This document shows positions 9,021 to 56,605 of a stretch of DNA of 64,000 nucleotides, piece by piece (the stretch's first letter is position 1; each line of letters opens with the position of its first letter). Origin of the DNA: an uncultured Eubacteriales bacterium (GTDB taxonomy: Bacteria; Acidobacteriota; Aminicenantia; Aminicenantales; Aminicenantaceae); assembly GCA_964580235.1 (NCBI GenBank), contig CAZOJY010000003.1:934-64933 (forward strand), read 5' to 3'. Under the pieces are notes generated by a model, which was given only the letters and a program-made list of their open reading frames with translations, was not told the DNA's origin and ran no database searches. The position numbers were made by a program, and so were the translations under genes.

Positions 9021-9387
9021 TGATCCGGATTTTCTTGAGATGCACAAGGTTGTGCTGATTAATCACGGCTATGAGGTAACGACAGCCGCCAGCGCTCAAG
9101 AAGGATTGGAGAAAGTGAGAACAGAAATGCCCGACTTGATTGTTCTAGATCTGATGATGGAAAAGTACGATGCTGGGTTTTCCTTTAGCAAGCAGATCAA
9201 AAACGATCCCTTGTTCAAGAAAATCCCGATTTTGATGGTGACAGCCGTTGCCGATGCCACGGGGTACAAGTTTTCTTTGGAAAAGGACGGGTACTGGATG
9301 AAAACGGATGAGTTTCTCGAGAAACCCATCGAGCCGTCGGTTCTCATCAGCAAAATCGAAAAATTACTTGGGAAAAAAGAGGATTAA
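8986..9387 (+). CDS. Single-domain response regulator (receiver only)
   Basis: 133 aa. KKTILLVDDDPDF, IVLDLMMEKYDAGF, MVTA, EKP. Clear paralog of the REC domain at 6225-6905. Its start lies inside the last 35 nt of the kinase gene. Confidence 0.85.
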   Translation: MIQKKTILLVDDDPDFLEMHKVVLINHGYEVTTAASAQEGLEKVRTEMPDLIVLDLMMEKYDAGFSFSKQIKNDPLFKKIPILMVTAVADATGYKFSLEKDGYWMKTDEFLEKPIEPSVLISKIEKLLGKKED

Positions 9388-9388
9388 A

Positions 9389-34441: not shown

Positions 34442-35431
34442 ATGCGTTTTTTTAATTTAAAAAAGGAAACAATATTGACCGGCACGATTTTAGTTCTCTC
34501 GCTGGCCGGCATCCTCTATTTCGGCTTCATGGCCATCCGGGATAGTGGAAGGAATAATCAAGAGAATCCCTACGAATATGACTTGAAAGAATTTGAGACG
34601 AGCGGAGCTGATTTGGTCCATTATTCTGAAGTGGGCCGGATTAAAGTCGAGTTGCCCGAGGTTTATGGTTTATCCATCGGACCGGATGATGCGATTTATG
34701 TCTCCGGAAAAAACATCGTGCTTGTTTTCAACAGGGACGGAACAAACCGCTCGTCCATCCCAACCCAATGGATTGTCCGCTGTCTGGCTGTCGATCGGAA
34801 TCACGATCTGTACCTTGGGCTGGAAGACCATGTGGAAGTTTATGGCCGGCGAGGGAAAAAAAAAGCCAGTTGGGCTTCATTGGGGGAGAAGGCCATCATC
34901 ACTTCGATTGCGCTCTCAAAGAAGAATGTTTTCATTGCTGACGCGGGGAATCAGATTGTGTGGAAGTTCAATAAGTCTGGAACCCGCTCAAAAAGGATCG
35001 GTGAGAAAAACGAGTCCAGAGATATCCCTGGATTTATCATTCCCAGTCCTTTTTTCGATGTGGCGGTCGATTCGGATGGTTTCCTCTGGGTTGCCAACAC
35101 TGGGCGGCATTCCCTCGAGAATTATACGTTGGAAGGAGATTTCCGAACCTCTTGGGGTGAGTTTGGGATGGATATCCAAGGATTCTGTGGATGCTGTAAC
35201 CCATCACATTTTGCCCTGCTGAAGGATGGTTCCTTTGTGACCAGCGAAAAGGGTCTTCCCAGGGTCAAAATCTACAATCGGATCGGAAATCTCGTATCTG
35301 TTGTGGCCTCGACAGAGCAGTTTATCGAGGGCACGGTCGGCCTGGATTTGGCCGTGGATTCTGCACAGAAAATTTATGTTCTGGATCCGCAGCAAAACTT
35401 TGTGCGGATTTTCGCAAAGAAAAAATTATGA
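34442..35431 (+). CDS. Membrane-anchored six-bladed NHL-repeat propeller protein with a CGCC motif
   Basis: 329 aa with an N-terminal TM anchor (ILTGTILVLSLAGILYFGFMAI). Six NHL-like repeats (e.g. FIADAGNQIVWKFN, VAVDSDGFLWVANTGRHSLENY, LAVDSAQKIYVLDPQQNFVRIF). GFCGCCNPSHF at aa 248-258. GGAGG lies 7 nt upstream of the start. Confidence 0.72.
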   Translation: MRFFNLKKETILTGTILVLSLAGILYFGFMAIRDSGRNNQENPYEYDLKEFETSGADLVHYSEVGRIKVELPEVYGLSIGPDDAIYVSGKNIVLVFNRDGTNRSSIPTQWIVRCLAVDRNHDLYLGLEDHVEVYGRRGKKKASWASLGEKAIITSIALSKKNVFIADAGNQIVWKFNKSGTRSKRIGEKNESRDIPGFIIPSPFFDVAVDSDGFLWVANTGRHSLENYTLEGDFRTSWGEFGMDIQGFCGCCNPSHFALLKDGSFVTSEKGLPRVKIYNRIGNLVSVVASTEQFIEGTVGLDLAVDSAQKIYVLDPQQNFVRIFAKKKL

Positions 35432-35444
35432 GCCGGGAGGGTTT

Positions 35445-35711
35445 ATGATGCAAGAAAAACACGAAACGAAAAAAAGACGTGAGTTTTTGAAGGATGGATT
35501 GCGTGTCCTCATGCTTGGCGGTTTTGCGGCCGTAGGCCTGTCCCTGGGCAGGAAAAGGCGCTCTTTACCCAGGGATGGATCGTCCTGTTTGATTGATTTG
35601 CCGTGCAGAAGTTGTTCGGAGCTTCCTCTGTGCCCACTGCCCAGAGCAGTCGGTACGAAGCAGAAGTCCCGTGATTCCCGATACCATATTAAAATAAATA
35701 AAGAGGTATGA
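35445..35711 (+). CDS. Small Tat-signal, four-Cys protein (possible periplasmic Fe-S/metal-binding subunit)
   Basis: 88 aa, taken from inside ORF 35301-35711. GGGAGGG lies immediately upstream. Twin-arginine motif KKRREFLKDGLRVLMLGGFAAVGL. Motif C-x5-C-x2-C-x5-C-P (SCLIDLPCRSCSELPLCP). The stop is 1 nt before the next gene. Confidence 0.55.
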   Translation: MMQEKHETKKRREFLKDGLRVLMLGGFAAVGLSLGRKRRSLPRDGSSCLIDLPCRSCSELPLCPLPRAVGTKQKSRDSRYHIKINKEV

Positions 35712-35712
35712 A

Positions 35713-36300
35713 ATGAGGGATAAAATGAAAGCAGACCTGGTAAAACGGAGAGATTTCATCCGCAAGAGCTTTCACACCGTTATGGGTCTGACGATAGGAG
35801 GAGTGGCAGGAATTTTATTCAGCAAATCTTCTCCCGAAGAGATGGTGTGGCAGTTGGATCCCAACATCTGTATCCAGTGCGAAAAATGTGCGGTCCATTG
35901 TGTGCTGTCTCAATCTGCTGTGAAGTGCGTTCATTCCTATTCGATGTGCGGGTATTGTGATCTGTGCAGCGGTTACCTGCAGCCTGGAACGAAATACCGC
36001 GATACCGGAGCTGAAAGCCAGCTTTGTCCATCCGGTGCGATAAAGCGAACATTCATAGAAGATCCTTATTTTCAATACATAATAGATGAGAAATTGTGCT
36101 TCGGGTGCGGAAAATGTGTAAAAGGCTGCAATTCGTTCGGCAACGGGTCTTTGTACCTGCAGGTGCGGCATGACCGCTGTCTGAACTGCAATCTGTGCTC
36201 GATTGCAAGAAGGTGCCCTTCTCGAGCTTGGAAGCGTGTGCCTGCCAGCCAACCTTATATCATACGGGGAGATGAAAACAAAAGATTTCTAAAAGGGTAA
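35713..36300 (+). CDS. NapG-like Tat-exported poly-[4Fe-4S] ferredoxin
   Basis: 195 aa. Twin-arginine motif VKRRDFIRKSF followed by a hydrophobic stretch. Four Cys clusters: CIQCEKCAVHC, CGYCDLC...CP, CFGCGKCVKGC and CLNCNLCSIARRCP. Confidence 0.75.
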   Translation: MRDKMKADLVKRRDFIRKSFHTVMGLTIGGVAGILFSKSSPEEMVWQLDPNICIQCEKCAVHCVLSQSAVKCVHSYSMCGYCDLCSGYLQPGTKYRDTGAESQLCPSGAIKRTFIEDPYFQYIIDEKLCFGCGKCVKGCNSFGNGSLYLQVRHDRCLNCNLCSIARRCPSRAWKRVPASQPYIIRGDENKRFLKG

Positions 36301-36301
36301 T

Positions 36302-37645
36302 GTGGTGAAAAAAATAAAATTTTTTTTCGTTGCCGTATTGATTCTCTGCCCTCTAATCGTTTTATCCCAGATTCAGGAGCGTTTTCCCAAGCCCGATTTT
36401 CAATCGGATTATATACGGCCCGATTTGCTCACCCCTCCCCCCAGAGCGGTCGCTTTGGAATACATGGATATATTCGTCCTCGTTGCGGCCCTTTTTCTGG
36501 CAACATATTTTGCCCACAAACAGCGGTCCCGCCAAAACCTATTTCTCGTGATGGTGTTTTCTCTTGCCTACTTCGGGTTTTACCGGAAGGGGTGCGTGTG
36601 TTCGGTCGGTGCCGTACAGAATGTCAGCTTTGCGCTGTTCAATCCTGCCTATATCATTCCGGTATCCGTCATCGTTTTTTTTGTTTTGCCCCTGGTTTTG
36701 GCCCTGTTTTACGGACGCACATTCTGTGCTGCCGTTTGTCCTCTCGGAGCCATCCAGGATGCCGTAGTTCTGAAACCTGTCCATGTGCCCGAATGGCTGG
36801 CCAGCTTTTTGGGTGTTTTTCCTTATGTTTATTTGGGGCTTGCAGTTTTGCTTGCTATAAACGGGGCAGGATTTATAATCTGCCAATACGATCCGTTCAT
36901 CGGCTTTTTCCGATTCGGAGCGGATTTCAATATGCTTATTGTTGGCCTCTCCATTCTTCTGCTGGGAACGGTTGTGGCTCGCCCATACTGCCGGTTTCTT
37001 TGCCCATATGGTGTGCTTTTGAACTGGATGTCCCGTCTTTCCAGGCGGCATGTCAGGATTTCGCCGGGTGAATGCAACAATTGCCGGCTGTGTGAGGAGT
37101 CCTGTCCGTTCGGGGCCATAAAAAAAGCGGATAACACAGCACCCAAACAAGACAAAAAAAATGACGTCAAAAGAATGGCTTTCTTGATTGTCTTCCTTCC
37201 TGCTGTTGTTATCGCCAGTGGCTGGATCGGCTCGCGGCTGGACATTCCGCTCTCCCGCCTGCACCCGACAGTTTCTTTGGCCGAAGAGGTACTTTTGGAA
37301 AATTCAGGAAAAAGGACAGAAATGACAGACGCAACGAAAGCCTTCCGGGCTTCGGGAAAGCCATCAGAAGAATTATTTGCTGAAGCAACATCGGTGCGAC
37401 TTTTATTCCGCAGGGGCGGGTGGATTTTTGGCGGTTTCATCGGTCTGATCCTCTGTTTGAAGCTCATCAGTTTTTTTATACGGACAAAACAGTTGGAGTA
37501 CGACGTGGATAAAGGGATGTGTCTCAGCTGTGGACGCTGTTTTGCCTACTGCCCATATGAGCAGGTCCGGTTAGGCCTGATGACACCGGAAGAATTGAAT
37601 GAGTTGGATAGGCGTGAGACCAAAATCAAGCAGTTTAGGGCCTGA
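36302..37645 (+). CDS. NapH/NosR/MauN/CcoG-type integral-membrane polyferredoxin
   Basis: 447 aa with a GTG start. Multiple TM helices. Two family-typical CxxxCP motifs (CAAVCPLG, CRFLCPYG). CNNCRLCEESCP [4Fe-4S] motif. An extra TM pair and a second CLSCGRCFAYCP motif at the C-terminus. Confidence 0.78.
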   Translation: MVKKIKFFFVAVLILCPLIVLSQIQERFPKPDFQSDYIRPDLLTPPPRAVALEYMDIFVLVAALFLATYFAHKQRSRQNLFLVMVFSLAYFGFYRKGCVCSVGAVQNVSFALFNPAYIIPVSVIVFFVLPLVLALFYGRTFCAAVCPLGAIQDAVVLKPVHVPEWLASFLGVFPYVYLGLAVLLAINGAGFIICQYDPFIGFFRFGADFNMLIVGLSILLLGTVVARPYCRFLCPYGVLLNWMSRLSRRHVRISPGECNNCRLCEESCPFGAIKKADNTAPKQDKKNDVKRMAFLIVFLPAVVIASGWIGSRLDIPLSRLHPTVSLAEEVLLENSGKRTEMTDATKAFRASGKPSEELFAEATSVRLLFRRGGWIFGGFIGLILCLKLISFFIRTKQLEYDVDKGMCLSCGRCFAYCPYEQVRLGLMTPEELNELDRRETKIKQFRA

Positions 37646-37649
37646 CGGT

Positions 37650-39365
37650 ATGGAAAAAGAACCGAAAGAAAGACAAAAAATGGATAGGACAGCACTCTGG
37701 TGCAGCATAACAAAAAAAATCGCTGTTGTTGCTGCGGTGTTGGCTGGGATTCTAAGTGTCTTGATGATTGCCAATTACATCCAGACAAAGTCAGTTGATC
37801 CGCTCAACAGCCAGGCTATTTCTCAATTGATGACAAGGCTCCAAGAAAATCCAGAGGATACGGCTTTAAAGGAACAGATCCGGGCCCTTGATCTGCTGGC
37901 CAGAAAGGCCTATTTCACCCATCAATGGCAGGTCCGGACAGGAAGCTATCTCCTGTTCACGTTTGTCCTCATTCTTCTTCTAGCCCTGAAATACTTGAGT
38001 TCTCTCGAATCCCGGCTGCCCGATTTGAGCAAAAGACCTGAGCCGGATAAAACATGGGAGAGCAAACTTTTGTCCCGGAAATATCTCCTTTACGGCGGGT
38101 TGGGATTGATATTGTTGGCTTTTGCTTTTGGGATTCTTTCTCAGACGGAATTCAAAAAAATCGGTCGTGTTCGGGCAGAAAAAAACCAGGGGACCTCGGA
38201 CTTTCCCGGAATAGAAGAAATTCGAGATAACTGGCCTGGTTTTCGCGGTCCTGAAGGAATCGGATGGGCTTATCACACGGACGTGCCCACAGAATGGGAT
38301 GGCCCTTCCGGCAAAAACATACTTTGGAAGATTCCAATTCCCTATCCTGGTAAAAATTCTCCCATCGTATGGGGAAAAAGAATTTTTCTTTCTGGTGCAG
38401 ACAGAAGGATCCAGATTGTGTATTGTATCGATGCCGATTCGGGAGATATTCTCTGGCAGACGGAGCTGAACGACATCCCTGGTTCTCCTGCAAGGAGGCC
38501 CCAGGTCACTGAGGATACCGGTTATGCCGCTCCCACGATGACCACCGATGGAGAGCGTGTTTTTGCCCTGTTTGCGACAGGCGATGTGGCCTGCCTCGAT
38601 TTTGAGGGAAATCGCATCTGGGCCAAAAACTTGGGGGTGCCCGAAAATCATTACGGGCATGCCTCCTCATTGATCACACATCAAGATCTGCTGCTTGTGC
38701 AATTCGACCAGAACACAGGAGGGCGTTTACTGGCATTGAAAACTCAGTCCGGAAATTTGGCGTACGACCAGCCGCGGGATGTGGAGATTTCCTGGGCCTC
38801 GCCGATATTGGTGAATACGGGGAGACGGACAGAACTCATCCTCAATTCCAATCCGTTCGTGATGTCTCATGACCCTCAAACCGGGGAAGAGTTATGGCGT
38901 GTGAGATGCATGCTCGGGGAAATTGCCCCGTCTCCTGCTTATGCGGACGGCATGGTCTTTGTGGTTAACGACTATGCCCGCCTGGCGGCCATCAAGCTGG
39001 GGGAAACACCAGAATTGGTTTGGGAATACCTCGATGATCTCTCGGAAGTCTCCAGTCCTTTGGCCACCAAAAATTTTGTGATCATGGCCGCCAGCTACGG
39101 CACGGTGACATGTTTTGACCGAAAAACCGGGGAGAGGTTTTGGATCGAAGAGTTTAGCGAAGGATTTTATTCCTCTCCCATCCTGGTCGGAGATTTTGTT
39201 TATCTGATGGATATGTCAGGCGTCATGATGGTTTTTAAAGCGGATAAGCAATTCCAACGTGTGAGTCGGAATGAGCTGGGGGAAATGGCCATGAGCATAC
39301 CTGCTTTCATGCACGATCGGATCTATATCCGGGGTGTGAAAAATTTGTTCTGCATAGGAAATTAA
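37650..39365 (+). CDS. Polytopic-membrane-anchored PQQ-like beta-propeller repeat protein, paralog G
   Basis: ORF starts at 37599. ATG 37650 lies 4 nt after the previous stop. Three predicted TM helices within the first ~190 aa, then DNWPGFRGPEG and propeller blades (CIDADSGDILW, CLDFEGNRIW, CFDRKTGERFW). Confidence 0.78.
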   Translation: MEKEPKERQKMDRTALWCSITKKIAVVAAVLAGILSVLMIANYIQTKSVDPLNSQAISQLMTRLQENPEDTALKEQIRALDLLARKAYFTHQWQVRTGSYLLFTFVLILLLALKYLSSLESRLPDLSKRPEPDKTWESKLLSRKYLLYGGLGLILLAFAFGILSQTEFKKIGRVRAEKNQGTSDFPGIEEIRDNWPGFRGPEGIGWAYHTDVPTEWDGPSGKNILWKIPIPYPGKNSPIVWGKRIFLSGADRRIQIVYCIDADSGDILWQTELNDIPGSPARRPQVTEDTGYAAPTMTTDGERVFALFATGDVACLDFEGNRIWAKNLGVPENHYGHASSLITHQDLLLVQFDQNTGGRLLALKTQSGNLAYDQPRDVEISWASPILVNTGRRTELILNSNPFVMSHDPQTGEELWRVRCMLGEIAPSPAYADGMVFVVNDYARLAAIKLGETPELVWEYLDDLSEVSSPLATKNFVIMAASYGTVTCFDRKTGERFWIEEFSEGFYSSPILVGDFVYLMDMSGVMMVFKADKQFQRVSRNELGEMAMSIPAFMHDRIYIRGVKNLFCIGN

Positions 39366-39372
39366 AAAGGCC

Positions 39373-41727
39373 ATGAAACAGGAAACGGACTGCATTCTGG
39401 CATTTGTGGATAAGATAGTCGGCAAAATCGGCACACATGCCGGCGATGTTATCCCGATTCTCCATGCCGTCCAAAAGGAATTCAACTATCTTCCCGGATC
39501 TGCACTCCGGAGGGTTTGTGAAATCACGGATATAACGCCTGCCGCTATAACGGGCGTTTCGACTTTTTACTCCCAGTTCCGCCACAGCCCGATCGGAAAA
39601 CACCTCATCCGTGTCTGTACCGGTACAGCCTGTCATGTCAAGGGATCTGAGCTTGTGTATGATTCCTTCTGCCGAGAACTGAATATTCCGGATGGCCTGG
39701 ACACGGATCCGGAACTGCTGTTCACCGTGCAAAAAATTGCCTGCCTTGGCTGCTGCACCATAGCACCGGTCGTCCAGATTGACGACGTGACTTACGGGCA
39801 TGTGAAAACGGATGGCGTTTCGCAGATTGTCCAGGATTTTCTCCGGCACAAAAGCCGTCAAGCAGCGAGAATCCAGGATCGAAAAATTCCTCATTTAGAC
39901 GCAGGCGAGATCAAAATCGGGTTGGGATCCTGCTGTGTGGCCAGCGGAAGCAGCCGTGTGCAGCAGGCCCTGGAAGAGTCTTTGGCAGAAACCGGAATCA
40001 AAACTCAGGTGAAAAGAGTCGGATGTGTGGGAATGTGCCACCGAACGCCTCTTTTGGAGGTGAGTGTTCCGGATAGAGAACCCGTTCTTTATGACAGTGT
40101 CCGTCCGGAAGATGTAAGGCGCATCATACTCAGGCACTACAAACCCATAACCCTGCGCCAGCGGATTAAAAACGCTGCCTATAATTTTTTTGAAAATATT
40201 CTCGAGAATCCGCAGACCAACGGATTTTCGCGCCACCCCCTGCATGTGCGGGATCCGAACATTCAGGCCTTTCTGGGAAGACAGAAACACATCGCCACCG
40301 AACATGCCGGTCAAATCGATCCCCTTGATTTGACAGAATACCGGTCAAAGGAGGGCTTTGAAGCCTTAGCCCGCTGCCTTACGGAACTCTCTCCGGGAGT
40401 TGTGATCGATGTCATCAAAGCCAGCGGACTGCGGGGGAGGGGTGGAGCAGGATATCCTTCGGGGCAGAAATGGGAAGCCGTCCATCGAACTCAAGATGAC
40501 ACAAAGTATATTATCTGCAACGGAGACGAAGGAGACCCTGGAGCATTCATGGACCGGATGATTCTGGAATCCTATCCTTTTCGTGTTATCGAAGGGATGA
40601 TCATTGCCGCTTACACGCTCGGCTCCCATGAGGGATATTTCTACATACGAGCGGAATACCCGCTTGCTGTCCACCGGGTGAGGGATGCGATCAGGCAGTG
40701 TGAGGAAGCAGGACTTTTAGGGAAAAATATTCTCGGGAAAGGATATTCTTTAAACCTGAACATTCTGGAGGGAGCCGGCGCATTTGTCTGTGGGGAAGAA
40801 ACAGCGCTGATCGCTTCCCTGGAAGGGAAACGGGGAAATCCCAGTTATCGGCCGCCCTATCCTGCCCAAAAGGGGCTGTGGGGCCATTCGACTCTGGTCA
40901 GCAATTGTGAAACGTTTGCCACGGTGCCCTGGATTCTACGGAACGGGGCAGAAGCCTTTACGCAATTTGGGACAGAAAAGTGCCCTGGAACCAAAGTTTT
41001 TTCTTTGGCCGGAAAAATTGCCCGCGGCGGGCTGATTGAAGTTCCGATGGGGATCACGATTCAAGAAATTGTCAGGGACATCGGGGGCGGGATCGAAAAC
41101 GGGAGGCCGTTCAAGGCCGTCCAGATAGGCGGTCCTTCCGGCGGTTGTATCCCGGCCAGACTGGCCCATACCCGAGTGGATTATGAAGATCTCACCAAGG
41201 TGGGCACAATGATGGGCTCAGGCGGTTTATTGGTGATGGATGATTCAGACTGTATGGTGGACATCGCCCGGTATTTTTTATCTTTTACGCAGAACCAGTC
41301 GTGCGGGAAATGCACATTCTGCCGCATAGGCACACGGCACATGCTTCGTATTCTCGAACGTCTGTGTGCCGGTGAGGGAAAAGAGGAAGATCTGGCGAAG
41401 CTTGAAGAAATAGCCGAGAAAACAAAACAGGGCAGTTTGTGCGGACTCGGGAAGACAGCCCCAAATCCTGTTCTTACCACGCTGAAATATTTCAGGGACG
41501 AATACGTAGCCCATTTGACTGGAACCTGTCCTGCCAAACGCTGCAAAGCCCTGATCACTTACACGATTGATAAAACATGCATCGGCTGCACGGTCTGTGC
41601 CCAGAAATGTCCCGCAGGGGCGATTGCGATTGTTCCCTATCAAAGGCACATGATCGATCAATCCAGGTGTACAAAATGCGGAACCTGCATGCAGGTCTGC
41701 CCGACAGAATCGGTGAATCTAAGATGA
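39373..41727 (+). CDS. Fused NuoE-like [2Fe-2S], thioredoxin-like ferredoxin and NuoF-like FMN/NADH flavoprotein with a C-terminal 2x[4Fe-4S] (HydB/HndC/StnB-type)
   Basis: 784 aa. NuoE motifs (IRVCTGTACHVKG, CLGCCTIAP). A second thioredoxin-like module (GLGSCCVASG...CVGMCHRTP). NuoF motifs GLRGRGGAGYPSGQKW, CNGDEGDPGAFMDR, SCGKCTFCRIG and CGLGKTAPNPV. C-terminal CIGCTVCAQKCP and CTKCGTCMQVCP. Confidence 0.88.
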   Translation: MKQETDCILAFVDKIVGKIGTHAGDVIPILHAVQKEFNYLPGSALRRVCEITDITPAAITGVSTFYSQFRHSPIGKHLIRVCTGTACHVKGSELVYDSFCRELNIPDGLDTDPELLFTVQKIACLGCCTIAPVVQIDDVTYGHVKTDGVSQIVQDFLRHKSRQAARIQDRKIPHLDAGEIKIGLGSCCVASGSSRVQQALEESLAETGIKTQVKRVGCVGMCHRTPLLEVSVPDREPVLYDSVRPEDVRRIILRHYKPITLRQRIKNAAYNFFENILENPQTNGFSRHPLHVRDPNIQAFLGRQKHIATEHAGQIDPLDLTEYRSKEGFEALARCLTELSPGVVIDVIKASGLRGRGGAGYPSGQKWEAVHRTQDDTKYIICNGDEGDPGAFMDRMILESYPFRVIEGMIIAAYTLGSHEGYFYIRAEYPLAVHRVRDAIRQCEEAGLLGKNILGKGYSLNLNILEGAGAFVCGEETALIASLEGKRGNPSYRPPYPAQKGLWGHSTLVSNCETFATVPWILRNGAEAFTQFGTEKCPGTKVFSLAGKIARGGLIEVPMGITIQEIVRDIGGGIENGRPFKAVQIGGPSGGCIPARLAHTRVDYEDLTKVGTMMGSGGLLVMDDSDCMVDIARYFLSFTQNQSCGKCTFCRIGTRHMLRILERLCAGEGKEEDLAKLEEIAEKTKQGSLCGLGKTAPNPVLTTLKYFRDEYVAHLTGTCPAKRCKALITYTIDKTCIGCTVCAQKCPAGAIAIVPYQRHMIDQSRCTKCGTCMQVCPTESVNLR

Positions 41728-43325
41728 AGACTGTTCATATCACCATCAACAATCAGGATATCGTCATTCCGGGCGACCAATCGATATTGGAGGCGGCCAA
41801 AAAGTTGGATATTCCGATTCCGACGCTGTGTTATTTAAATGGATATGAGCGGACAACGTCCTGCATGATTTGTGTCGTTCATGAGGCCAACTCCGATCGC
41901 CTGCTCCCGGCATGTTCGGCCACTGTATCTGAAGGCATGCAGATCGCGACCGAAAATGAAAGAGTCCGGGAAGCCCGGAAAGATGCCCTGGATTTTTTGT
42001 TGAGCGAGCATGCCGGAGATTGTGAGGCCCCCTGCCGTCGGGCCTGCCCCGCCCATATGAACATCCCGCTCATGATCCGCCAGATTGGAGAAGGCCGGTT
42101 GGAGGATGCAATCCATACCATAAAAAAGCATATCGCCCTTCCTGCAGTTCTGGGCCGCATCTGTCCGGCTCCGTGTGAAAAGGGATGCCATCGCAGGTTT
42201 TATGACGACCCGGTTTCAATCTGTTTGTTAAAAAGATATGCAGCCGATGTTGATCTGTCGAAAAAATCTCCTTATCGCCCGGTCCAAAAAAAAGATTCCG
42301 GGAAAAAAGTTGCCGTAATCGGTACAGGACCGACAGGCTTATCTGCGGCCTACTATCTTCTGCAAAACGGTCATGCCTGCGATATTTATGACAAAAACCC
42401 GGAGCCGGGCGGCATGCTCAGATATGGAGTTGCTGATGAGGAGCTTCCCAAATCCGTCCTCGATCTGGAGATTGAACGGATCGCCGAATTGGGAGCCACG
42501 TTTCTGATGGAGCGTTCGTTTAGCAAGGATTTTGGATGGGATGATTTACATAAAGCCTATGATGCTGTCATCCTGGCCGTCGGAAAAATAAATCCTCCCA
42601 TGTTTGAGGAATCGGGAATGACCCTTACCCCCCGCGGCATCTTAATCGACAGAAAAACGTATCAAACGGCTTTGCCGGGATTTTTTGCCGGAGGGAATGC
42701 TGTATCGGAATCGCGCATGGCCATCCGCGCAGCAGCCCATGGCAGAAGTATGGCTTTAGCGGTGAGCCAATTCTTAGCCCATAAAAAAGTGACAGGGATT
42801 CTCCGGCGGTTCCAATCGATGCTTGGGAAAACTCGGGATGATGAAGTTCGTGAATTCTTGAAGGAAGCGCAAGAAGAGGAGAGGATCATTCCGGCCGGAT
42901 TTAAAAAGGGATATGCGGACAGAGAGGCCGTCAGAGAATCCACCCGGTGTTTCGGATGTGACTGCCGGAAAGCCGATTTCTGCAAACTGCGCCTGTATTC
43001 GGAAAAATACCATGCCGACCAGCGCCGTTTCACGCATTCGGAAAGAAAAAAGTTACAAAAAAACATTCAACATGACCTGGTCGTTTACGAACCAGGAAAG
43101 TGCATCAAGTGCGGATTGTGCGTCCGAATCACCAAAAAATCTGGCGAAAAATTCGGATTGACGTTTGTCGCCCGAGGGTTCGATATTCGTGTTGCAACCC
43201 CTTTTGATGTCCCGCTTGGCCAGGGTTTAGAAAAGGTGGCTGGAGAATGTGTCCTGTCCTGTCCCACTGGGGCACTCTCCTGGAAAGACAGGGGAAAAAC
43301 TGAAGGTGTCAGCCCCAACGGATAA
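41724..43325 (+). CDS. [2Fe-2S] ferredoxin-fold plus GltD/NfnB-like FAD/NAD(P)H oxidoreductase with extra C-terminal Cys clusters (StnA-like)
   Basis: ORF starts at 41577. ATG 41724 overlaps the previous stop (ATGA) and gives MKTVHITINNQDIVIPGDQSILEAAKK...CYL...SCMICVV...C, a NuoG/HydA-N-like [2Fe-2S] domain. GltD motifs CEAPCRRACPAH, GRICPAPCEKGC and VAVIGTGPTGLSAAYYL. C-terminal CFGCDCRKADFC and CIKCGLC...CVLSCPTGA. Confidence 0.8.
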   Translation: MKTVHITINNQDIVIPGDQSILEAAKKLDIPIPTLCYLNGYERTTSCMICVVHEANSDRLLPACSATVSEGMQIATENERVREARKDALDFLLSEHAGDCEAPCRRACPAHMNIPLMIRQIGEGRLEDAIHTIKKHIALPAVLGRICPAPCEKGCHRRFYDDPVSICLLKRYAADVDLSKKSPYRPVQKKDSGKKVAVIGTGPTGLSAAYYLLQNGHACDIYDKNPEPGGMLRYGVADEELPKSVLDLEIERIAELGATFLMERSFSKDFGWDDLHKAYDAVILAVGKINPPMFEESGMTLTPRGILIDRKTYQTALPGFFAGGNAVSESRMAIRAAAHGRSMALAVSQFLAHKKVTGILRRFQSMLGKTRDDEVREFLKEAQEEERIIPAGFKKGYADREAVRESTRCFGCDCRKADFCKLRLYSEKYHADQRRFTHSERKKLQKNIQHDLVVYEPGKCIKCGLCVRITKKSGEKFGLTFVARGFDIRVATPFDVPLGQGLEKVAGECVLSCPTGALSWKDRGKTEGVSPNG

Positions 43326-43329
43326 GGCG

Positions 43330-44490
43330 ATGCAAAAATTGCGATTTATTTCACTGTTCTTAATCATTTCCCTTATTCTTTTCTCCTGCACAAAGAAAGA
43401 GGGTGAAAAAAACAGTCCGGATGTCGATCAGGTGAATTGGCCCATTTTTCGCGGGGATCCAACGCTGTCAGGGACAGCGGAAAATGAACTTCCGGATGAT
43501 CCCGTGTTATTGTGGTCCTTCATGACTGAGTCCTGGATAATCGGGTCGCCGGTTTTAGGAATGGGATGTGTTTTTATAGGTTCGTCGGATGGAAAGGTGT
43601 ATTCGATAAAATTGTCCGATGGAAAAGAAGTCTGGGAGTTTAATACCGGAGATGATATCGAAGCCTCGCCTCTTCTGCTGAATAAAAATATCTATGTGGG
43701 CAATCTGAGTGGAGAATTGTATTGTCTGAGTGCGGATTCGGGAGAAGTTCGATGGAAATACGAATGCGAAAGCTCTATCTATGGCTCGACCAATTGGGTC
43801 ATGAATCCACAAACTCAGAAACCTTGGATATTGGTTGGAAGTTATGACAACAGGTTGTACTGCTTGGACGCGGGTACTGGCAAGCTGAATTGGTCGTATG
43901 AAACTGATAACTATATCAACGGAGCCCCTGCCACGGATGGCGTTCATGTCGTATTCGGCGGATGTGATGAAATGCTTCACATATTGTCTGTTTTGGATGG
44001 AAAAAAAATCGGGGAGGTTTGGGCAGGCTCTTACATCCCCGGTTCAGCAGCTCTAGTGGATGGCAAAGCCTATCTCGGCCAGTATGATAACAAATTGATT
44101 TGTGTCGACAGGAAACGGAAAACGATAGACTGGGAGTACCAGGACAAGGATAATCCGGATTCATTCTTTTCTTCTCCTGCCGTGGGAAAAGACCGCGTTC
44201 TCATCGGATCGCGGAATGATTATTTGCACTGTGTGGACAGAAAAACCGGAAAAAAAATTTGGGTTTTTCGAACTCATGACGATATCGACAGCTCACCTGT
44301 CATTGCCGGCGAGAAGGCTGTTGTGGGATCATTGGATGGAAGATTATATATTGTCGATATGGCGACAGGCAAAGAGCTCTGGTCTTACGAGATCGGAGCA
44401 CCTCTCTTTAGCTGTCCTGCTGTGGATGGGGGATTTATTGTTATCGGTGCGGATGATGGACGGATTTATACCTTTGGAGAAAAAAAATGA
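43330..44490 (+). CDS. PQQ-like (BamB-like) beta-propeller lipoprotein, paralog H
   Basis: ORF starts at 43249. ATG 43330 lies 4 nt after the previous stop and gives MQKLRFISLFLIISLILFSC (lipobox-like). VNWPIFRGDP motif. Regular PQQ_2-type blades (SDGKVYSIKLSDGKEVW, CLSADSGEVRW, CLDAGTGKLNW, CVDRKTGKKIW, IVDMATGKELW). Confidence 0.8.
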   Translation: MQKLRFISLFLIISLILFSCTKKEGEKNSPDVDQVNWPIFRGDPTLSGTAENELPDDPVLLWSFMTESWIIGSPVLGMGCVFIGSSDGKVYSIKLSDGKEVWEFNTGDDIEASPLLLNKNIYVGNLSGELYCLSADSGEVRWKYECESSIYGSTNWVMNPQTQKPWILVGSYDNRLYCLDAGTGKLNWSYETDNYINGAPATDGVHVVFGGCDEMLHILSVLDGKKIGEVWAGSYIPGSAALVDGKAYLGQYDNKLICVDRKRKTIDWEYQDKDNPDSFFSSPAVGKDRVLIGSRNDYLHCVDRKTGKKIWVFRTHDDIDSSPVIAGEKAVVGSLDGRLYIVDMATGKELWSYEIGAPLFSCPAVDGGFIVIGADDGRIYTFGEKK

Positions 44491-45773
44491 AGATTGCCTA
44501 TGTGACTCCAGGTCATGGTTTGCAGTTCTACTGTCAGAATTGCTTTCGAGATACCGCTTTGCTCAAGTCCTTTTCCGCGCTTGGGCATGAGGTCGTACAA
44601 GTCCCCCTGTACCTGCCATCTGGGTTGAAAGCGGGTCCAAATGTTGCTGCCACGCCGGTATTTTATGGCGCTGTCAATATCTATCTCAAAGAAAAACTGT
44701 CTCTCTATAGACATGCCCCTGAATGGATGGAGCGTATTTTCGATTCTCCTGTCCTACTGCATCTGGCAGCGAAAAAATCAGGCTCAACGCGCCCCACAGG
44801 GCTGGAGGAGATGACGATATCCATGCTGGAAGGAGAAAAAGGGCATCAGGCATCTGAACTGGACCATCTCATCCACTTCCTCAAAAATGAGGTGGCTCCG
44901 GACGTTGTTCATCTCTCGAATGCCCTGCTGCTCGGTTTGGCCCGCAGGCTTAAGAGCGACCTGGGGGCGGGTGTGGTTGTTTCCCTCCAGGATGAGAATG
45001 AATGGGTGGATTTGATGACCGAAAAATACCAGAATCAGGTCTGGAGTTTGATGGCTGAAAAAGCCGGGGATGTTGACTTCTTTGTGACGACCAGTCAATA
45101 TTATTCTACAAAATCCCAAAAGCAGATGAATTTGGCTCAGGAGAAGATAAAAGTGATTCATGGTGGGATCGATCTTACAGGATATGAAAAATCGGCCCTT
45201 CCTTTCGATCCCCCCGTCATCGGATATATGTGTCGGATGTCAGAATATTTTGGGCTGGGAATCGTGTTTGACGCATTTTTGGAATTGAAAAAAGATAACC
45301 GGTTTCGGGATCTGCGTCTGCATATGACAGGCGGTTATACCGGCGATGACAAACCATTTTTGAACAGTCAGATGAAAAGGATATCAGAACATGGATATGC
45401 TGATGACGTAATAGTGTTCAAAGATTTCTGTAAAGATAGCCGCGTAAAGTTCCTCAAATCTCTGACTTTGCTTTCGGTCCCGGTTCCCACTGGAGAGGCC
45501 TTTGGCGCGTATCAAGTTGAGGCTTTAGCTGCTGGAGTCCCTGTCGTTCAGCCGAATGTGGGGTCTTATCCGGAGTTTAGCGCAATGACCCGCGGGAGCC
45601 TCATCTATGAACCGAATACGGGGGATAAACTTGCCTATGCCGTGGCCTCCATCATCTCAGATCCGGATAAACTCAGGAAAATGGGTGATCAGGGGAGGAA
45701 GGTCGTAATGGAGAATTTTTCTATAGATCAAATGGCAAAAAATATGGCTAGGATTTATAATGATGTTGCTTGA
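44487..45773 (+). CDS. GT4-family (GT-B) glycosyltransferase
   Basis: 428 aa, cytoplasmic. ATGA overlap with the upstream propeller gene. C-terminal Glycos_transf_1-like region with the E-x7-E motif (GEAFGAYQVEALAAGVPVV). Confidence 0.75.
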   Translation: MKIAYVTPGHGLQFYCQNCFRDTALLKSFSALGHEVVQVPLYLPSGLKAGPNVAATPVFYGAVNIYLKEKLSLYRHAPEWMERIFDSPVLLHLAAKKSGSTRPTGLEEMTISMLEGEKGHQASELDHLIHFLKNEVAPDVVHLSNALLLGLARRLKSDLGAGVVVSLQDENEWVDLMTEKYQNQVWSLMAEKAGDVDFFVTTSQYYSTKSQKQMNLAQEKIKVIHGGIDLTGYEKSALPFDPPVIGYMCRMSEYFGLGIVFDAFLELKKDNRFRDLRLHMTGGYTGDDKPFLNSQMKRISEHGYADDVIVFKDFCKDSRVKFLKSLTLLSVPVPTGEAFGAYQVEALAAGVPVVQPNVGSYPEFSAMTRGSLIYEPNTGDKLAYAVASIISDPDKLRKMGDQGRKVVMENFSIDQMAKNMARIYNDVA

Positions 45774-46455
45774 ACTGCAAAATATTGTAAAAAAATTTGA
45801 GATCCCGTCCGGCCAAACACACACAACCGTCCTCAATGACATCTCGCTTCTTGTCAACTCGGGTGAATCGGTGGCTGTGGTAGGACCGTCGGGATCAGGG
45901 AAAAGCACCCTGTTGAACATCATGGGGGCGCTGGATAAACCGACCTCCGGCAGTGTGATGTTTCTAGGGAAAAATCTGGCGGAATGTAAAGATGCGGAAC
46001 TTTCCCGAATCCGGAATAGAGAGATCGGTTTTGTGTTCCAACTTCATCATCTGCTGCCCCAGTGCACAGCTTTGGAAAATGTTTTGATCCCCACGATTCC
46101 TTTCAGACATAAAAAAGAAAATGACGATGTGAAGAACCGGGCAAAAAAATTGCTGGAGAGAATTGGCCTTGAAAAGCGCATGGATTATTTTCCGGCACAA
46201 CTGTCCGGGGGAGAGATGCAGCGGGTGGCCGTTGTCAGGGCTCTGATAAACAGGCCGAAGCTAATCCTGGCGGATGAGCCGACAGGCTCGCTCGATCGCG
46301 AATCCTCCGAAAATCTTGGCCGTCTCATGGTAGAAATGAACAAAGAAGAGAAGACCACTTTGATTGTGGTCACCCATTCATTTGATTTTGCCAGGCTTAT
46401 GGAAAGGATTTTAAAACTCCAAGATGGAAAATTGGAAAACTATGTGATCCCATGA
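45760..46455 (+). CDS. ABC transporter ATP-binding protein (LolD/MacB/YbbA-like)
   Basis: 231 aa. Walker A GPSGSGKST, Q-loop, signature LSGGEMQRVAV, Walker B LILADEPTGSLD. 14-nt overlap with the GT4 gene. Confidence 0.9.
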   Translation: MMLLELQNIVKKFEIPSGQTHTTVLNDISLLVNSGESVAVVGPSGSGKSTLLNIMGALDKPTSGSVMFLGKNLAECKDAELSRIRNREIGFVFQLHHLLPQCTALENVLIPTIPFRHKKENDDVKNRAKKLLERIGLEKRMDYFPAQLSGGEMQRVAVVRALINRPKLILADEPTGSLDRESSENLGRLMVEMNKEEKTTLIVVTHSFDFARLMERILKLQDGKLENYVIP

Positions 46456-49400
46456 ATCTTGGAAAATTTTGCATCCGCAGTTTGGCATTTTATCGGAAAA
46501 CACATGTCTGGGTTGTTCTGGGGACGATGGCAAGCACGGCCGTACTGGTCGGCGCTCTGGTTATCGGCGATTCTGTTCGGCAAAGCCTTGAAAAGATTGT
46601 TTTTGACAGGCTTGGGAAAACAGAGTTCGCCCTTTCCTCGGGGGACCGTTTTTTCCGATCCAGAATGGCAGATGATCTTGCGGTATCCCTGAATACGGCT
46701 GTTGCGCCTCTCCTGCAGACGAGAGGAATAGCCATCGCCAGCGGCGGAAAGAGCAGGGCCAATAACGTTCAGGTTGTCGGTGTGGATACCCGTTTTGGGC
46801 AGATCGGCGGAGCAAAGGACCTCTACGGCCAGATGGCTCCGGGTGAAGCCATCATCAACCGCCCTTTGGCTTTGCGTCTGGGCATTGGGGAAAATGATGA
46901 GGTACTCCTGCGCATGAAAAAACTGGATGTCCTGCCAAAAGATGCCCCTCTCTCCTTAGATTCCGATTCTGCGGTAGCGCGGCGTTTTACTGTTAAAAGG
47001 GTGGCGTCGGATGGGGAGTTCGGGAGGTTTAATCTCCGAGCTGACCAGCTTGCACCCCTCACCGCTTTTATTTCCCTCCCTTATTTAGCAAAAGAAATGG
47101 GCTTTGGGGGAAGGGCCAATGTTCTTCTTGTCTCAAATAGGTCAGAAGCGCCTCTGGATATCCCGGAGTTGCGCGAGGCGCTCAAACAGGCCTGGACTCT
47201 AGCCGATGGCGGCTTCGAACTGACCGATATTCCAGACAGGAATGTTGTCGAGCTCCAATCGGCCAGAATCTTCCTCGATCCTCCTGTTGTCGATGCTTCC
47301 ATGAAAATTGGCGGTGCGGCCCAGCCCATATTGACCTATTTTGTTAATGAACTACGGCATGGCAGCAGATCTACTCCTTATTCTTTTGTTTCCTCCCCGG
47401 GGTCACCCTTAGTTTCATCCCGCATGAAGGATGATGATATCATTATCAATGCTTGGCTTGCCGAAGATTTAGATGCAGGGGTCGGGGATCAGATCCATCT
47501 GACCTATTATGTCCTGGATTCAGGGCGGAAATTGCGGGAAAAAAGTTCTGATTTCAGCGTTAAAAATGTTGTGCCTCTGGAAGGCATGTATGCCGACAGA
47601 GATTTGCTGCCGAATTTTCCTGGATTATCCGGCGCAGAGAACTGCCGGGACTGGGATCCAGGGATCCCGGTAGATTTGAATAAAATCCGGGACAAAGATG
47701 AGGATTATTGGGACGCTTTCAGAGGAACCCCCAAAGCGTTTGTGACTCTGAATGCGGCCCAGAGCATGTGGGCCAACCGATTCGGAAGTTTAACGGCAGT
47801 CCGGTTTGCCGGATTGAAGATTGATGATGTTGAGAATGCCATAAAAAATGCTCTGGATCCTGCCAGTCTCGGGTTTGTCTTCCAGGAGGTTAAGAAAGAA
47901 GGGCTCAGGGCAAGTTCGCAGTCGGTAAATTTTTCTCAACTTTTCATGGGATTAAGTTTTTTTATTGTCGTTGCCGCCCTGTTGCTGACGGGTCTGCTGT
48001 TTGTTTTCAACACAGAAAATCGATCTGAAGAAAACGGATTGTTATTGGCACTGGGGTTCTCCAGAAAAGCGGTGAAATGGATGGTTCTCCGCGAAGGGGC
48101 CGTGCTTGTTATGATCGGCAGCATGTTGGGAGGCATTGGAGGAGTCCTGTATAACTTTCTCATCTTGAGTGCGTTAAAAACTGTCTGGCGTGGGGCGGTG
48201 GGCACCTCTGCACTCCATATTCATCTCCAAATAACCTCACTGGTTTTGGGCGTGTCGGCAGGTATTGTTGTCGCCTTTTTTAGCATATGGCTGGTGACGC
48301 AGAGACACATTCATCAGCCTATCACGGGCCTGCAGAGAGGACTTGCAAAAATCGAAACAATCGGAACAAAAAAGCCCCGAACCAGCCTGCTCGTCGGCAT
48401 TTCGTGCCTGACCGCAATCTCGATTATCCTGGTCATCGCAGATTTTGGCAGAGGAACCCAGGCTTTTGCTTTTTTCTTTTCGGCTGGTTTTCTGTTTCTT
48501 ATCGGAGGAATGGCTTTTATAAATGTTGGACTTTATCATCTGGGGAAAAAAACGGAAAAAGTTCGGTTGAACATCTTCAACATCGGCTTCCGAAATACAA
48601 TGAGAAAACGCACACGGAGCATCACTCTTGTGGGGCTTCTGGCCTGCGGCCTTTTCATTGTGTTTACGGTTGGGGCCAACCGCCTGAATGCCCTTAAAGA
48701 TGCAGAGAGAAGGGACTCGGGCACAGGAGGATTTGCTCTCTATGGTGAAAGCTCAATTCCGGTCCTGTATGATCTCAACTCCCAAAAAGGAAAAACGTTT
48801 TACGGATTGGATGCGAAAGGACTGGAAGATGTGAGTTTTGTCCAATTTCGAATAAAGGAAGGAGACGATGCCAGCTGTTTGAATCTTAATCGTGTCTCCA
48901 ACCCGCAGCTGATCGGGGCTAACCCAGAGGAACTTTCCAAGAGAAATGCCTTTACGTTCGCCGCTATGACGAAGGATGTCGATCCAAATAATCCCTGGAT
49001 GGTTTTAGCAAAAAATTTACCCGATGGCACAATCCCGGCTGTGGCCGATTTAACCGTTATCATGTGGGGGCTTGGAAAAGCCGTGGGGGATACGCTGACT
49101 TACATGGATGAAAAAGGAGAAGCGTTCGATTGCAAATTGGTTGGGGGATTGGCCAATTCCATTTTTCAGGGGAACCTCATCATCTCTGAAAAAACACTCA
49201 TTCATAAGTACCCCTCCTCGGGGGGATATGGACTCTTTCTCGTTGATGCTCCTCCAGAGAGGGCGGCAGATGTTTCCAAAAGTCTAACCTGGGCCCTGCT
49301 AGACCAGGGCCCGGACTTGATGCCGGCATCCACCCGTCTGGCCGAGTTCAACACGGTACAAAACACTTATCTATCCATTTTTCTGATTCTGGGAAGCCTT

Positions 49401-56594: not shown

Positions 56595-56605
56595 CTCTGG
56601 TTTCC

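Follow-up and report, generated by a model that had tools for sequence, protein, structure and literature searches.

A Bfu-type gene pair with a truncated NfnA-like subunit as the possible cytoplasmic head of a NapGH-like membrane redox complex

Introduction

To what can a Bfu-type enzyme be connected when its genes lie among those of membrane and exported proteins in one operon? Enzymes of the Bfu type hold a central place in anaerobic energy metabolism, and their diversity is set by what the A subunit connects to. The question is raised here by a gene pair from an uncultured bacterium of the Aminicenantaceae (Acidobacteriota), found in a 64,000-nucleotide stretch of contig CAZOJY010000003.1 that was analyzed as a whole and is referred to below as the window. 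The pair belongs to a same-strand gene run covering ~30.1-52.5 kb. Gene 1 (39373-41727, + strand) encodes BfuCB784, a 784-residue protein assigned as a BfuC (NuoE)-BfuB (NuoF) fusion from Pfam, NCBIfam, and PDB sequence matches, and gene 2 (41724-43325, + strand) encodes BfuA533, a 533-residue protein assigned as a truncated NfnA/StnA-like subunit from Pfam, PDB alignments, and AlphaFold2 (AF2)/Foldseek analysis. A sequence-only reading had considered the pair as a possible Stn-like NADH/NADPH/ferredoxin transhydrogenase with subunits C and B fused. Our analysis points instead, with evenly balanced confidence, to a Bfu-type cytoplasmic head mounted on a NapGH-like transmembrane wire, the whole forming a conserved membrane redox complex.

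The two genes are coupled by an ATGA overlap, as had been noticed from the sequence: the ATG of gene 2 (41724-41726) and the TGA stop codon of gene 1 (41725-41727) share bases inside AGATGAAG. The open reading frame (ORF) called mechanically for gene 2 (41577-43325, 582 residues) is over-extended; its homologues all begin at the methionine of the MKT... segment, which yields the 533-residue protein.

The fused BfuC-BfuB subunit

Pfam analysis of BfuCB784 confirms the domain series read earlier from the sequence, namely a NuoE-type domain, a thioredoxin-like domain, a NuoF core, and a 2x[4Fe-4S] tail. The 2Fe-2S_thioredx family (PF01257) covers residues 13-155 (E 5e-48), a second stretch of the same family also being found, and a thioredoxin-like domain follows at residues ~180-260. 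The Complex1_51K/Nuo51 FMN (flavin mononucleotide)-binding domain (PF01512) is assigned to residues 348-519 (1e-43), the SLBB domain (PF10531) to residues 543-591 with a score under the Pfam cutoff (20.8 vs 27 bits), and the NADH_4Fe-4S domain (PF10589), harboring the N3-type [4Fe-4S] cluster, to residues 630-714 (2e-32). The C-terminus is a dicluster Fer4 domain (residues 733-781), i.e. a 2x[4Fe-4S] ferredoxin domain. The motifs GRGGAGYPSGQKW and CNGDEGDPGAF, both reported at first reading, are found in the translation of gene 1.

Searching the PDB with residues 179-784 reports the strongest hits with the B subunits of NfnABC and StnABC: 717 bits with 9bov_B (C. saccharolyticus NfnB), 702 bits with 9n5u_B (T. 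sibiricus NfnB), and 686 bits with 8oh5_B (S. ovata StnB), the HydB chains scoring below them. The alignment to the NfnB chains spans the whole chain, and those to NfnB/StnB retain the SCGKCTFCR...LCGLG motif as well as both CxxCxxCxxxCP motifs of the C-terminal arm. The N-terminal 179 residues resemble the C subunits of NfnABC, StnABC, and HydABC (9bov_C, 8oh5_A, and 8a6t_C, E ~1e-36), with their four cysteines aligned. The length of the fusion, ~780 residues, is kept across the loci of the family, and the suggestion that subunits C and B are joined in a single polypeptide stands. Judged from these alignments, gene 1 encodes a BfuC-BfuB fusion of the Nfn-type lineage with an intact ferredoxin-side arm. 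The Bfu-type core of BfuCB784 is complete: besides the NAD(H)/FMN site and the [4Fe-4S] cluster next to it, it comprises the BfuC [2Fe-2S] cluster and the 2x[4Fe-4S] arm, which in NfnABC/HydABC binds ferredoxin.

A plain NADH dehydrogenase head, in other words a non-bifurcating diaphorase-type input passing electrons from NADH to the NapH-like/polyferredoxin wire described below with no ferredoxin coupling, would likewise find its NAD(H)/FMN site and Fe-S wire intact. Non-bifurcating NuoEF-type complexes do exist (PMC13556243), and the synteny reported below fits such a head equally well. However, the 2x[4Fe-4S] arm and the BfuC [2Fe-2S] cluster, which constitute the ferredoxin path in NfnABC/HydABC, are fully conserved, and the BfuB part scores best against the NfnB chains of demonstrated bifurcating enzymes (686-717 bits; PMC11829005). 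We regard this alternative as unlikely.

The truncated NfnA-like subunit

In BfuA533, Pfam analysis reports an N-terminal Fer2_4 domain (residues 2-78) with the ligands of the [2Fe-2S] cluster A1 (C36, C47, C50, and C64), followed by a Fer4_20 domain (residues 100-180) carrying those of the clusters A6/A7 (C100, C104, C108, C147, C151, C155, and K170). A single FAD (flavin adenine dinucleotide)-type Rossmann motif GxGxxG, GTGPTG, starts at residue 200. The ligands of cluster A2 (CxxCxC..C) are C409, C412, C414, and C420, and those of cluster A3 are C460, C463, C466, and C513, within a Nqo3-like Fer4 domain (residues 452-518) that scores under the Pfam cutoff; in the first ferredoxin motif the fourth cysteine is replaced by a threonine (T470). 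The domains and clusters listed in the sequence-only reading, a [2Fe-2S] domain and C-terminal cysteine motifs around a GltD-like core, are thereby present, but the core is incomplete and holds one dinucleotide motif. Nor are the Fe-S domains permuted as had been stated: a 2Fe-2S domain comes first, the NfnL/GltD-like insert second, and CxxCxC..C and then CxxCxxC..CP last, precisely as in NfnA/StnA.

The closest solved relatives of BfuA533 are 9bov_A (NfnA, E 2e-102), 8oh5_C (StnA, 6e-93), and 9n5u_A (T. sibiricus NfnA, 1e-84). All three parts of the gene pair are closest to 9BOV, 8OH5, and 9N5U among solved structures, in agreement with the Bfu/Stn (NfnABC) descent put forward from the sequence. 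The alignment with 9bov_A is split: residues 1-288 of BfuA533 match residues 1-287 of the chain and residues 280-521 match residues 427-674, leaving 139 NfnA residues, which comprise the NADPH-binding Rossmann motif VLVVGGGNTAMDAA, with no counterpart in BfuA533. The only match in BfuA533 to the VLVVGGGNTAMD segment of NfnA/StnA is a spurious one of -3.5 bits to the FAD motif, and Pfam analysis finds PF00070 in the Nfn-like protein encoded elsewhere in the window (10888-13191) yet not in BfuA533. That protein serves as an internal control: it aligns to BfuA533 with a 137-residue gap at the very position of the missing NfnA segment, and its extra segment holds a second GxGxxG (GGGNVA). The Fdh/NuoG-like domain of NfnA (~500 residues, clusters A4/A5; chain residues 675-1178) also has no counterpart in BfuA533, the equivalence stopping at residues ~674-680 out of 1178. 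Among NCBIfam models, the best for BfuA533 is PRK12814, which matches over its first 288 positions only (431.6 vs a cutoff of 916), and all GltD-type models score far under their cutoffs.

Structure prediction gives the same picture. The AF2 model of BfuA533, computed from 110 diverse family members, has a predicted local distance difference test score (pLDDT) of 96.4 and a predicted TM-score (pTM) of 0.93; an input of 21 close homologues gave a pLDDT of only 51 and was not used. Foldseek reports TM-scores of 0.84-0.87 with 9bov_A/8oh5_C/9n5u_A when normalized to the query and of 0.40-0.50 when normalized to the target. The alignments to NfnA/StnA extend over 681-707 columns for the 533 residues of BfuA533. 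Query-normalized scores to NfnB, GltD, and DPD reach just 0.41-0.45. In terms of the predicted model, BfuA533 is a structural subset of NfnA.

The retained parts can be read against the wire described for NfnA. The electron path of Csac NfnA follows FAD-A7-A6-A3-A2-A1, and C108, C147, C151, and K170 of BfuA533 match the A7 ligands reported for that protein (PMC11829005). By this comparison the NfnA wire FAD-A7-A6-A3-A2-A1 appears to be retained in BfuA533, and the NADPH entry site and the A4/A5 side branch are lost. Cluster A4 is equally missing from T. sibiricus NfnA, as described in PMC9304861, and in the alignment that protein likewise has a threonine in place of the fourth cysteine of the first ferredoxin motif. 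Across the family, D/E223 (the acidic residue at the end of strand β2), GG229-230, and GxGxxG are nearly invariant, and the fold of the FAD-type domain is predicted confidently. The sequence-only reading had held that its proposal would fall if the GltD-like protein lacked FAD/NAD(P)H-binding residues; the NAD(P)H half is indeed missing, whereas the GxGxxG of FAD type is kept.

These results bear directly on the Stn-like NADH/NADPH/ferredoxin transhydrogenase proposed at first. StnABC and NfnABC are the closest solved relatives of the pair, but the NADPH-binding Rossmann domain is absent from BfuA533 and from its whole family, as seen in the alignment gap, the internal control, and the 110 diverse members, in each of which the position of this domain holds merely 17-50 residues. 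Since BfuA533 is devoid of the NADPH domain, a transhydrogenase function is unsupported, and we judge it very improbable. Moreover, a canonical protein of the fused NfnA/NfnB type, 767 residues long, is already encoded in the window (10888-13191, + strand), with DHODB Fe-S, NAD_binding_1, Fer4_20, and Pyr_redox_2 domains; as its NADPH domain is intact, the organism already has a conventional enzyme of the Nfn type.

A large family of truncated BfuA proteins

The truncation is a property of a large family. In an exhaustive search, more than 100 of the best 150 representatives at 50% identity are 505-560 residues long and match BfuA533 in a single full-length stretch with 35-58% identity. Among the best 120 matches of a word-indexed search (60-75% identity), nearly all are 520-560 residues long and a few are shorter, their named sources including Zixibacteria, Aminicenantes, KSB1, and Acidobacteriota. 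In the 110 diverse members, little or no variation is seen in the Fe-S ligands and in GxGxxG, and in the 21 close homologues the cysteine ligands are invariant.

Two database proteins depart from this architecture. In P0316 (locus L084, 1305-3908), which is encoded within the same cluster, a BfuA533 homologue is fused to the lipoprotein propeller through a signal/transmembrane segment, an arrangement that is topologically sensible, yet could be a sequencing artefact. In P0252 (locus L083, 1690-5091), found in a different gene context, a BfuA533-like part is followed by a ferredoxin domain and by a GltD-like module that is complete and binds NADPH.

P0252 is relevant to the idea that the pair is a soluble enzyme whose exposed BfuA533 flavin reacts with a cytoplasmic two-electron substrate (for example a disulfide, a polysulfide, or a quinone-like compound), the membrane genes being functionally separate. 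The near invariance of GxGxxG, of the acidic residue at the end of β2, and of the GG motif would suit such an enzyme, and removal of the NADPH domain should, extrapolating from the NfnA structure, bare the flavin face. However, the Asp of the GD motif is not conserved, in P0252 a whole NADPH-binding GltD module has been added, as though the truncated domain offered no substrate site of its own, and the gene order is kept over at least ten phyla with translational coupling. A soluble enzyme of this kind is therefore, in our estimate, improbable.

Conserved gene neighborhood

A scan of one genome per species returned 545 related stretches, and the gene context was drawn from the best 80 loci of these. 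They come from Aminicenantes, other Acidobacteriota, KSB1, Latescibacterota, Calditrichota, Cloacimonetes, Kiritimatiellae, Lentisphaerae/Victivallales, Planctomycetota (Pirellulales, Phycisphaerae, and Sedimentisphaerales), Rhodothermaceae, Chlorobiota, and Spirochaetota, as well as from Bacteroidota metagenome-assembled genomes assigned to Draconibacterium, Prolixibacteraceae, and Bacteroidales. Tblastn analysis with the window proteins finds one order throughout: NHL propeller, polyferredoxin, NapH-like protein, membrane-anchored propeller, BfuCB, and BfuA, the gene of a small twin-arginine protein with four cysteines being inserted between those of the NHL propeller and the polyferredoxin. 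Upstream genes were counted in the 48 loci with at least 7.8 kb of upstream DNA: BfuCB is present in 47, the membrane-anchored propeller prop588 and the NapH-like protein each in 45, the polyferredoxin in 44, and the NHL propeller in 41, all five occurring together in 39/48. Represented among these loci are Aminicenantes, KSB1, Latescibacterota, Calditrichota, Kiritimatiellae, Lentisphaerae, Planctomycetota, Bacteroidota, Spirochaetota, and Chlorobiota. The prop588 gene always lies between those of the NapH-like protein and BfuCB. Downstream, 51 loci could be counted, and the lipoprotein propeller and the GT4 glycosyltransferase are each found in 38, the ABC (ATP-binding cassette) ATPase in 35, and the FtsX permease in 34. 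A Pfam-annotated Aminicenantes chromosome and a KSB1 contig have a matching neighborhood. In the window itself, no gap between neighboring genes from the small ORF to FtsX exceeds 8 bp, and some of these genes overlap, which corresponds to a tight operon structure; scans for promoters/terminators and with Rfam added no informative feature. The conservation of gene order across phyla is strong support for a functional link between the pair and the adjacent NapH-like polyferredoxin, as the sequence-only reading had suggested.

The window, the Pfam-annotated loci, and the homologues of window proteins mapped in the other loci include no catalytic subunit of a hydrogenase, formate dehydrogenase, or comparable enzyme. 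The fear that homologues would always accompany a hydrogenase or formate dehydrogenase, missing here through rearrangement, is not borne out in the annotated and mapped loci. The idea that the cluster is a remnant of such an enzyme was rejected on the same evidence.

The Planctomycetota have a variant organization, with the FtsX gene upstream of the core and a different conserved gene set downstream. This set, located ~4-11 kb 3' of the BfuA homologue (loci L042, L046, L054, L055, L057, and L059), encodes a double propeller, a Fer4 protein (275 residues), a radical SAM protein (506 residues), a DUF116-polyprenyl synthetase fusion (641 residues), a prenyltransferase-like protein (303 residues), and a squalene-hopene-cyclase-like protein (627 residues).

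Membrane and exported partners

NapH447 (36302-37645, + strand) is assigned by Pfam, hydropathy, and conservation analyses to the PF12801 family of NapH/NosR-type polytopic membrane Fe-S proteins. It possesses two invariant CxxxCP motifs and three invariant cysteines (C98, C100, and C194) that are predicted to face the periplasm. The CxxCxxCxxxCP halves of its 2x[4Fe-4S] domain are split by a predicted two-helix transmembrane hairpin (residues ~289-393), and hydropathy places both halves on one K/R-rich, predicted cytoplasmic side. Its scores with the NapH models are low (44.8 bits vs a cutoff of 213 for TIGR02163, 43.4 vs 234 for PRK09477), and there are no nap genes among the annotated genes of the window or in loci L001 and L002. 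From these scores, NapH447 seems to belong only to the wider PF12801 superfamily and not to NapH proper.

The next candidate component of the wire, pFd195 (35713-36300, + strand), is a NapG-like polyferredoxin predicted to be periplasmic, with the twin-arginine signal KRRDFIRK and 16 cysteines, enough for four [4Fe-4S] clusters; the arginine pair and the 16 cysteines are invariant in 50 sequences. A PDB sequence search for relatives of NapH447 and pFd195 gave just generic ferredoxin matches. A small ORF of 88 residues (35445-35711, + strand) fills the 281-bp "gap" that separates the genes of the NHL protein and the polyferredoxin. It encodes the twin-arginine motif KKRREFLK, a hydrophobic anchor, and the conserved arrangement C48-x5-C54-x2-C57-x5-C63. 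Tblastn finds it just 5' of the pFd195 homologue in ~30 loci from several phyla, and in Kiritimatiellae/Lentisphaerae loci (L030 and L038) it forms the N-terminal part of a fusion with the polyferredoxin.

The NapH assignment bears on a quinone-linked alternative, in which the NapH-like protein would hold a quinol/quinone site. Menaquinone would then be the partner to which the Bfu head couples NADH and ferredoxin, and the periplasmic proteins would be supplied from the quinol pool through the polyferredoxin. According to work cited in PMC8238504, NapH is the putative quinol-oxidizing subunit of Nap, and for Nuo-Bfu a quinone has been put forward as third substrate (PMC9304861). The distance of NapH447 from the NapH models (44.8 vs 213 bits) argues against this alternative, as does the cluster itself, none of whose genes points to quinone chemistry, and we consider it rather improbable.

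The remaining partners are mostly β-propellers. Upstream of the small ORF, NHL329 (34442-35431, + strand) is assigned by Pfam as an NHL-repeat β-propeller with an N-terminal anchor, and carries an invariant vicinal cysteine pair in the motif F-CGCCNP (C251 and C252). Between NapH447 and the pair, prop588 (37599-39365, or from the alternative start 37680, + strand) comprises three predicted transmembrane helices followed by a PQQ_2/BamB-like β-propeller (Pfam and hydropathy analyses). Just downstream of BfuA533, prop386 (43330-44490, + strand) is a PQQ_2/BamB-like β-propeller with the lipoprotein-type signal LFSC. The start of the ensuing GT4 glycosyltransferase gene (44487-45773, + strand), whose product has an invariant N-terminal C16xxC19, overlaps the stop of prop386 by four bases. 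An ABC ATPase (45760-46455, + strand) and a duplicated FtsX/ADOP-type permease of 1097 residues with ~10 transmembrane segments (46452-49745, + strand) follow.

Other exported propellers border this core. Prop496 (30113, with a probable start at 30242, + strand), prop411 (31765-33000, + strand), and prop477 (32993-34426, + strand) are exported/anchored PQQ_2/BamB-like β-propellers preceding the NHL gene; their equivalents hold the same position in L001, and size-matched unannotated ORFs do so in L030. Prop477 has a conserved set of residues (H162, C183, H184, C187, C217, and H259) that could be a metal or redox site. Two further exported PQQ_2/BamB-like β-propellers (49800-51173 and 51175-52515, + strand) close the gene block and have equivalents in L001. 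A PQQ (pyrroloquinoline quinone) dehydrogenase identity was tried for the propellers and rejected: models of PQQ enzymes score 33-82 vs 480 bits, and it is the PQQ_2/BamB-type models that match. No CxxCH haem motif is present in any protein of the cluster. The vicinal cysteines of NHL329 and the Cys/His residues of prop477 are candidates only for periplasmic redox chemistry.

Proposed mechanism

If the head is indeed mounted on the NapGH-like wire, the place of NADPH as third partner of the core would be taken by the NapH-like protein, whose gene lies three genes upstream, through its cytoplasmic ferredoxin domain. This domain may dock on the face of BfuA533 bared by the loss of the NADPH and/or Fdh-like domains. 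Electrons from NADH and probably from reduced ferredoxin would be merged (confurcation) and leave the core at roughly -400 mV, pass through the NapH-like protein to the polyferredoxin exported by the twin-arginine pathway and to the small four-cysteine protein, and then reach the anchored NHL and β-propeller proteins in the periplasm. The fusion of the C and B subunits may compensate for the lost Fdh-like domain, which in Csac NfnABC helps to clamp NfnC, NfnA alone mediating tetramerization (PMC11829005). PF12801 proteins have been described as modular transmembrane electron-transfer units for periplasmic reductases and oxidases, including PQQ-type propellers, and NuoF-like cytosolic donors accompany MsrQ-like systems (PMC8238504).

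Outward flow would be the likelier direction because the membrane potential favors it, according to established bioenergetics. The opposite scheme, in which a low-potential periplasmic donor is oxidized by the propeller/NHL proteins and the imported electrons are bifurcated onto NAD+ and ferredoxin, draws on the reversibility of Bfu enzymes and their use of H2, formate, NADPH, and similar donors of intermediate potential (PMC9304861), and on the fact that NapH-like modules serve periplasmic oxidases as well (PMC8238504). However, import against the membrane potential into a node at ~-400 mV needs a very strong periplasmic reductant, and the window, the Pfam-annotated loci, and the mapped homologues contain no subunit of the hydrogenase/formate dehydrogenase type. 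Inward flow appears quite improbable.

Several points weigh against a Bfu head on a NapGH-like wire. Characterized NapGH is regarded as a quinol dehydrogenase. The contact between BfuA533 and the NapH-like protein is deduced indirectly, as is through-membrane electron transfer by NapH-family proteins, and whether the core bifurcates or confurcates is not readable from its sequence. Flavin occupancy of the truncated BfuA533 domain is uncertain because BfuA533 has an Asn in place of the Asp that binds ribitol in the "GD" motif, and this position varies in the wide family (N23, S19, G17, A16, D15, and E6). The periplasmic propellers have no recognized catalytic metal or cofactor site beyond a few conserved Cys/His residues. 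Lastly, as the downstream half is replaced by other genes in Planctomycetota, two or more functions may be united in the cluster.

A further and more tentative proposal is that the cluster encodes the first Bfu-type bifurcating/confurcating enzyme whose third "substrate" lies outside the cytoplasm, merging NADH and reduced ferredoxin and exporting the low-potential electrons for an undescribed periplasmic reduction, and that it is widespread (Acidobacteriota/Aminicenantes, FCB, and PVC). We hold this to be possible, though doubtful at present.

Comparison with known systems

The published definition of Bfu enzymes comprises a BfuB with Nuo51 FMN-binding, SLBB, Nuo51 4Fe-4S, and additional 4Fe-4S ferredoxin-type domains (IPR011538, IPR019554, IPR019575, and IPR017896), a BfuC with a NuoE-like [2Fe-2S] domain (IPR002023), and a BfuA with at least a 2Fe-2S ferredoxin-type and a 4Fe-4S domain (PMC9304861). 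All these parts are found in the pair, the SLBB and BfuA Fer4 matches being under cutoff. The pair shares with NfnABC/StnABC the BfuB core with its FMN, NADH, [4Fe-4S], and C-terminal dicluster motifs and the BfuC-type [2Fe-2S] domain, and BfuA533 shares with NfnA the N-terminal [2Fe-2S] domain, the A6/A7 pair including its lysine, the FAD-type Rossmann motif, and clusters A2 and A3. In contrast, the C and B subunits form one polypeptide, the ~139-residue NADPH and ~500-residue Fdh/NuoG-like (A4/A5) domains are missing, both of which are marks of NfnABC/StnABC membership, and the genes are located inside an operon of membrane and exported proteins. BfuA533 also falls outside the GltD/NfnB (NfnL) class: the two [4Fe-4S] clusters and the FAD-type domain are present, whereas the NAD(P)H domain is not. 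With HydABC and the wider Bfu family, the pair has in common the BfuBC core and a BfuA with 2Fe-2S and 4Fe-4S domains, but it has no H-cluster, nor any further domain or subunit that would act catalytically on a soluble third substrate. Schut et al. 2022 (PMC9304861) distinguish 57 BfuB clades, among them the Nfn clade 53, and give no assignment for 17; no NapH-linked type is mentioned in their text and one supplementary file. The predicted Nuo-Bfu and Mbh-Bfu systems resemble the present one in concept only, with a Bfu core on a membrane module and bfu genes in the middle of the cluster; here, the module is a NapH/NosR-type Fe-S protein with a twin-arginine polyferredoxin, and not a proton-pumping module of the complex-I/Mbh type.

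Regarding the membrane side, the cluster resembles NapGH/NosGH/MauMN in its twin-arginine polyferredoxin with four clusters and in its polytopic protein with two CxxxCP and cytoplasmic [4Fe-4S] motifs. The Nos and Mau systems serve periplasmic β-propeller enzymes (NosZ and methylamine dehydrogenase). Unlike in these systems, the NapH-like protein scores far under the NapH cutoffs, an extra transmembrane hairpin splits its ferredoxin domain, no Nap, Nos, or Mau catalytic genes are present, and a cytoplasmic NADH-linked partner is co-encoded. The flavinylation-associated NapH-like systems of Meheust et al. 2021 (PMC8238504) differ as well: the cluster contains neither an FMN-binding domain nor ApbE, its periplasmic carrier is Fe-S-based, and its cytosolic partner is of the Bfu type. 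A literature search of incomplete coverage, which leaves an earlier description possible, returned no description of the cluster or of an NfnA/GltD devoid of the NADPH domain. The module is widespread and, in the literature searched, uncharacterized, and it should not be filed as a transhydrogenase.

Other genes of the window

Upstream of the gene run, the ORF at 6930-9020 (+ strand) encodes a [FeFe]-hydrogenase-like H-domain with 2x[4Fe-4S] clusters fused to HisKA and HATPase_c domains, i.e. a sensory hydrogenase-histidine kinase, flanked by the genes of a response regulator (6225-6905) and of a hybrid PAS kinase (9308-10891). A VKOR-DsbA/thioredoxin fusion (14151-15434, + strand) corresponds to a periplasmic disulfide-bond-forming system. 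Near the cluster, a divergent trio on the opposite strand (53973-61722, - strand) encodes a GXGXG + GATase protein (873 residues), a glutamate-synthase FMN + Fer4 protein (1000 residues), and a FAD_binding_4/FAD-oxidase_C + Fe-S dicluster protein (739 residues), and looks like a split, archaeal-style glutamate-synthase-like system.

Implications

Annotation of the second gene as "glutamate synthase small subunit" or "NAD(P)-binding protein" implies an NADPH site that is absent here, and is corrected by the present analysis. The A subunit of this system is a bare Fe-S wire with a truncated flavin-type domain, genetically tied to a NapGH-like module and exported proteins in hundreds of genomes from poorly known phyla. 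To our knowledge, the electron source for the cytoplasmic [4Fe-4S] clusters of NapH/NosR-family proteins has not been established. If the Bfu head is mounted on the NapGH-like wire, it would provide a concrete and testable answer as to what feeds these clusters, and bifurcation chemistry would reach extracytoplasmic redox reactions.

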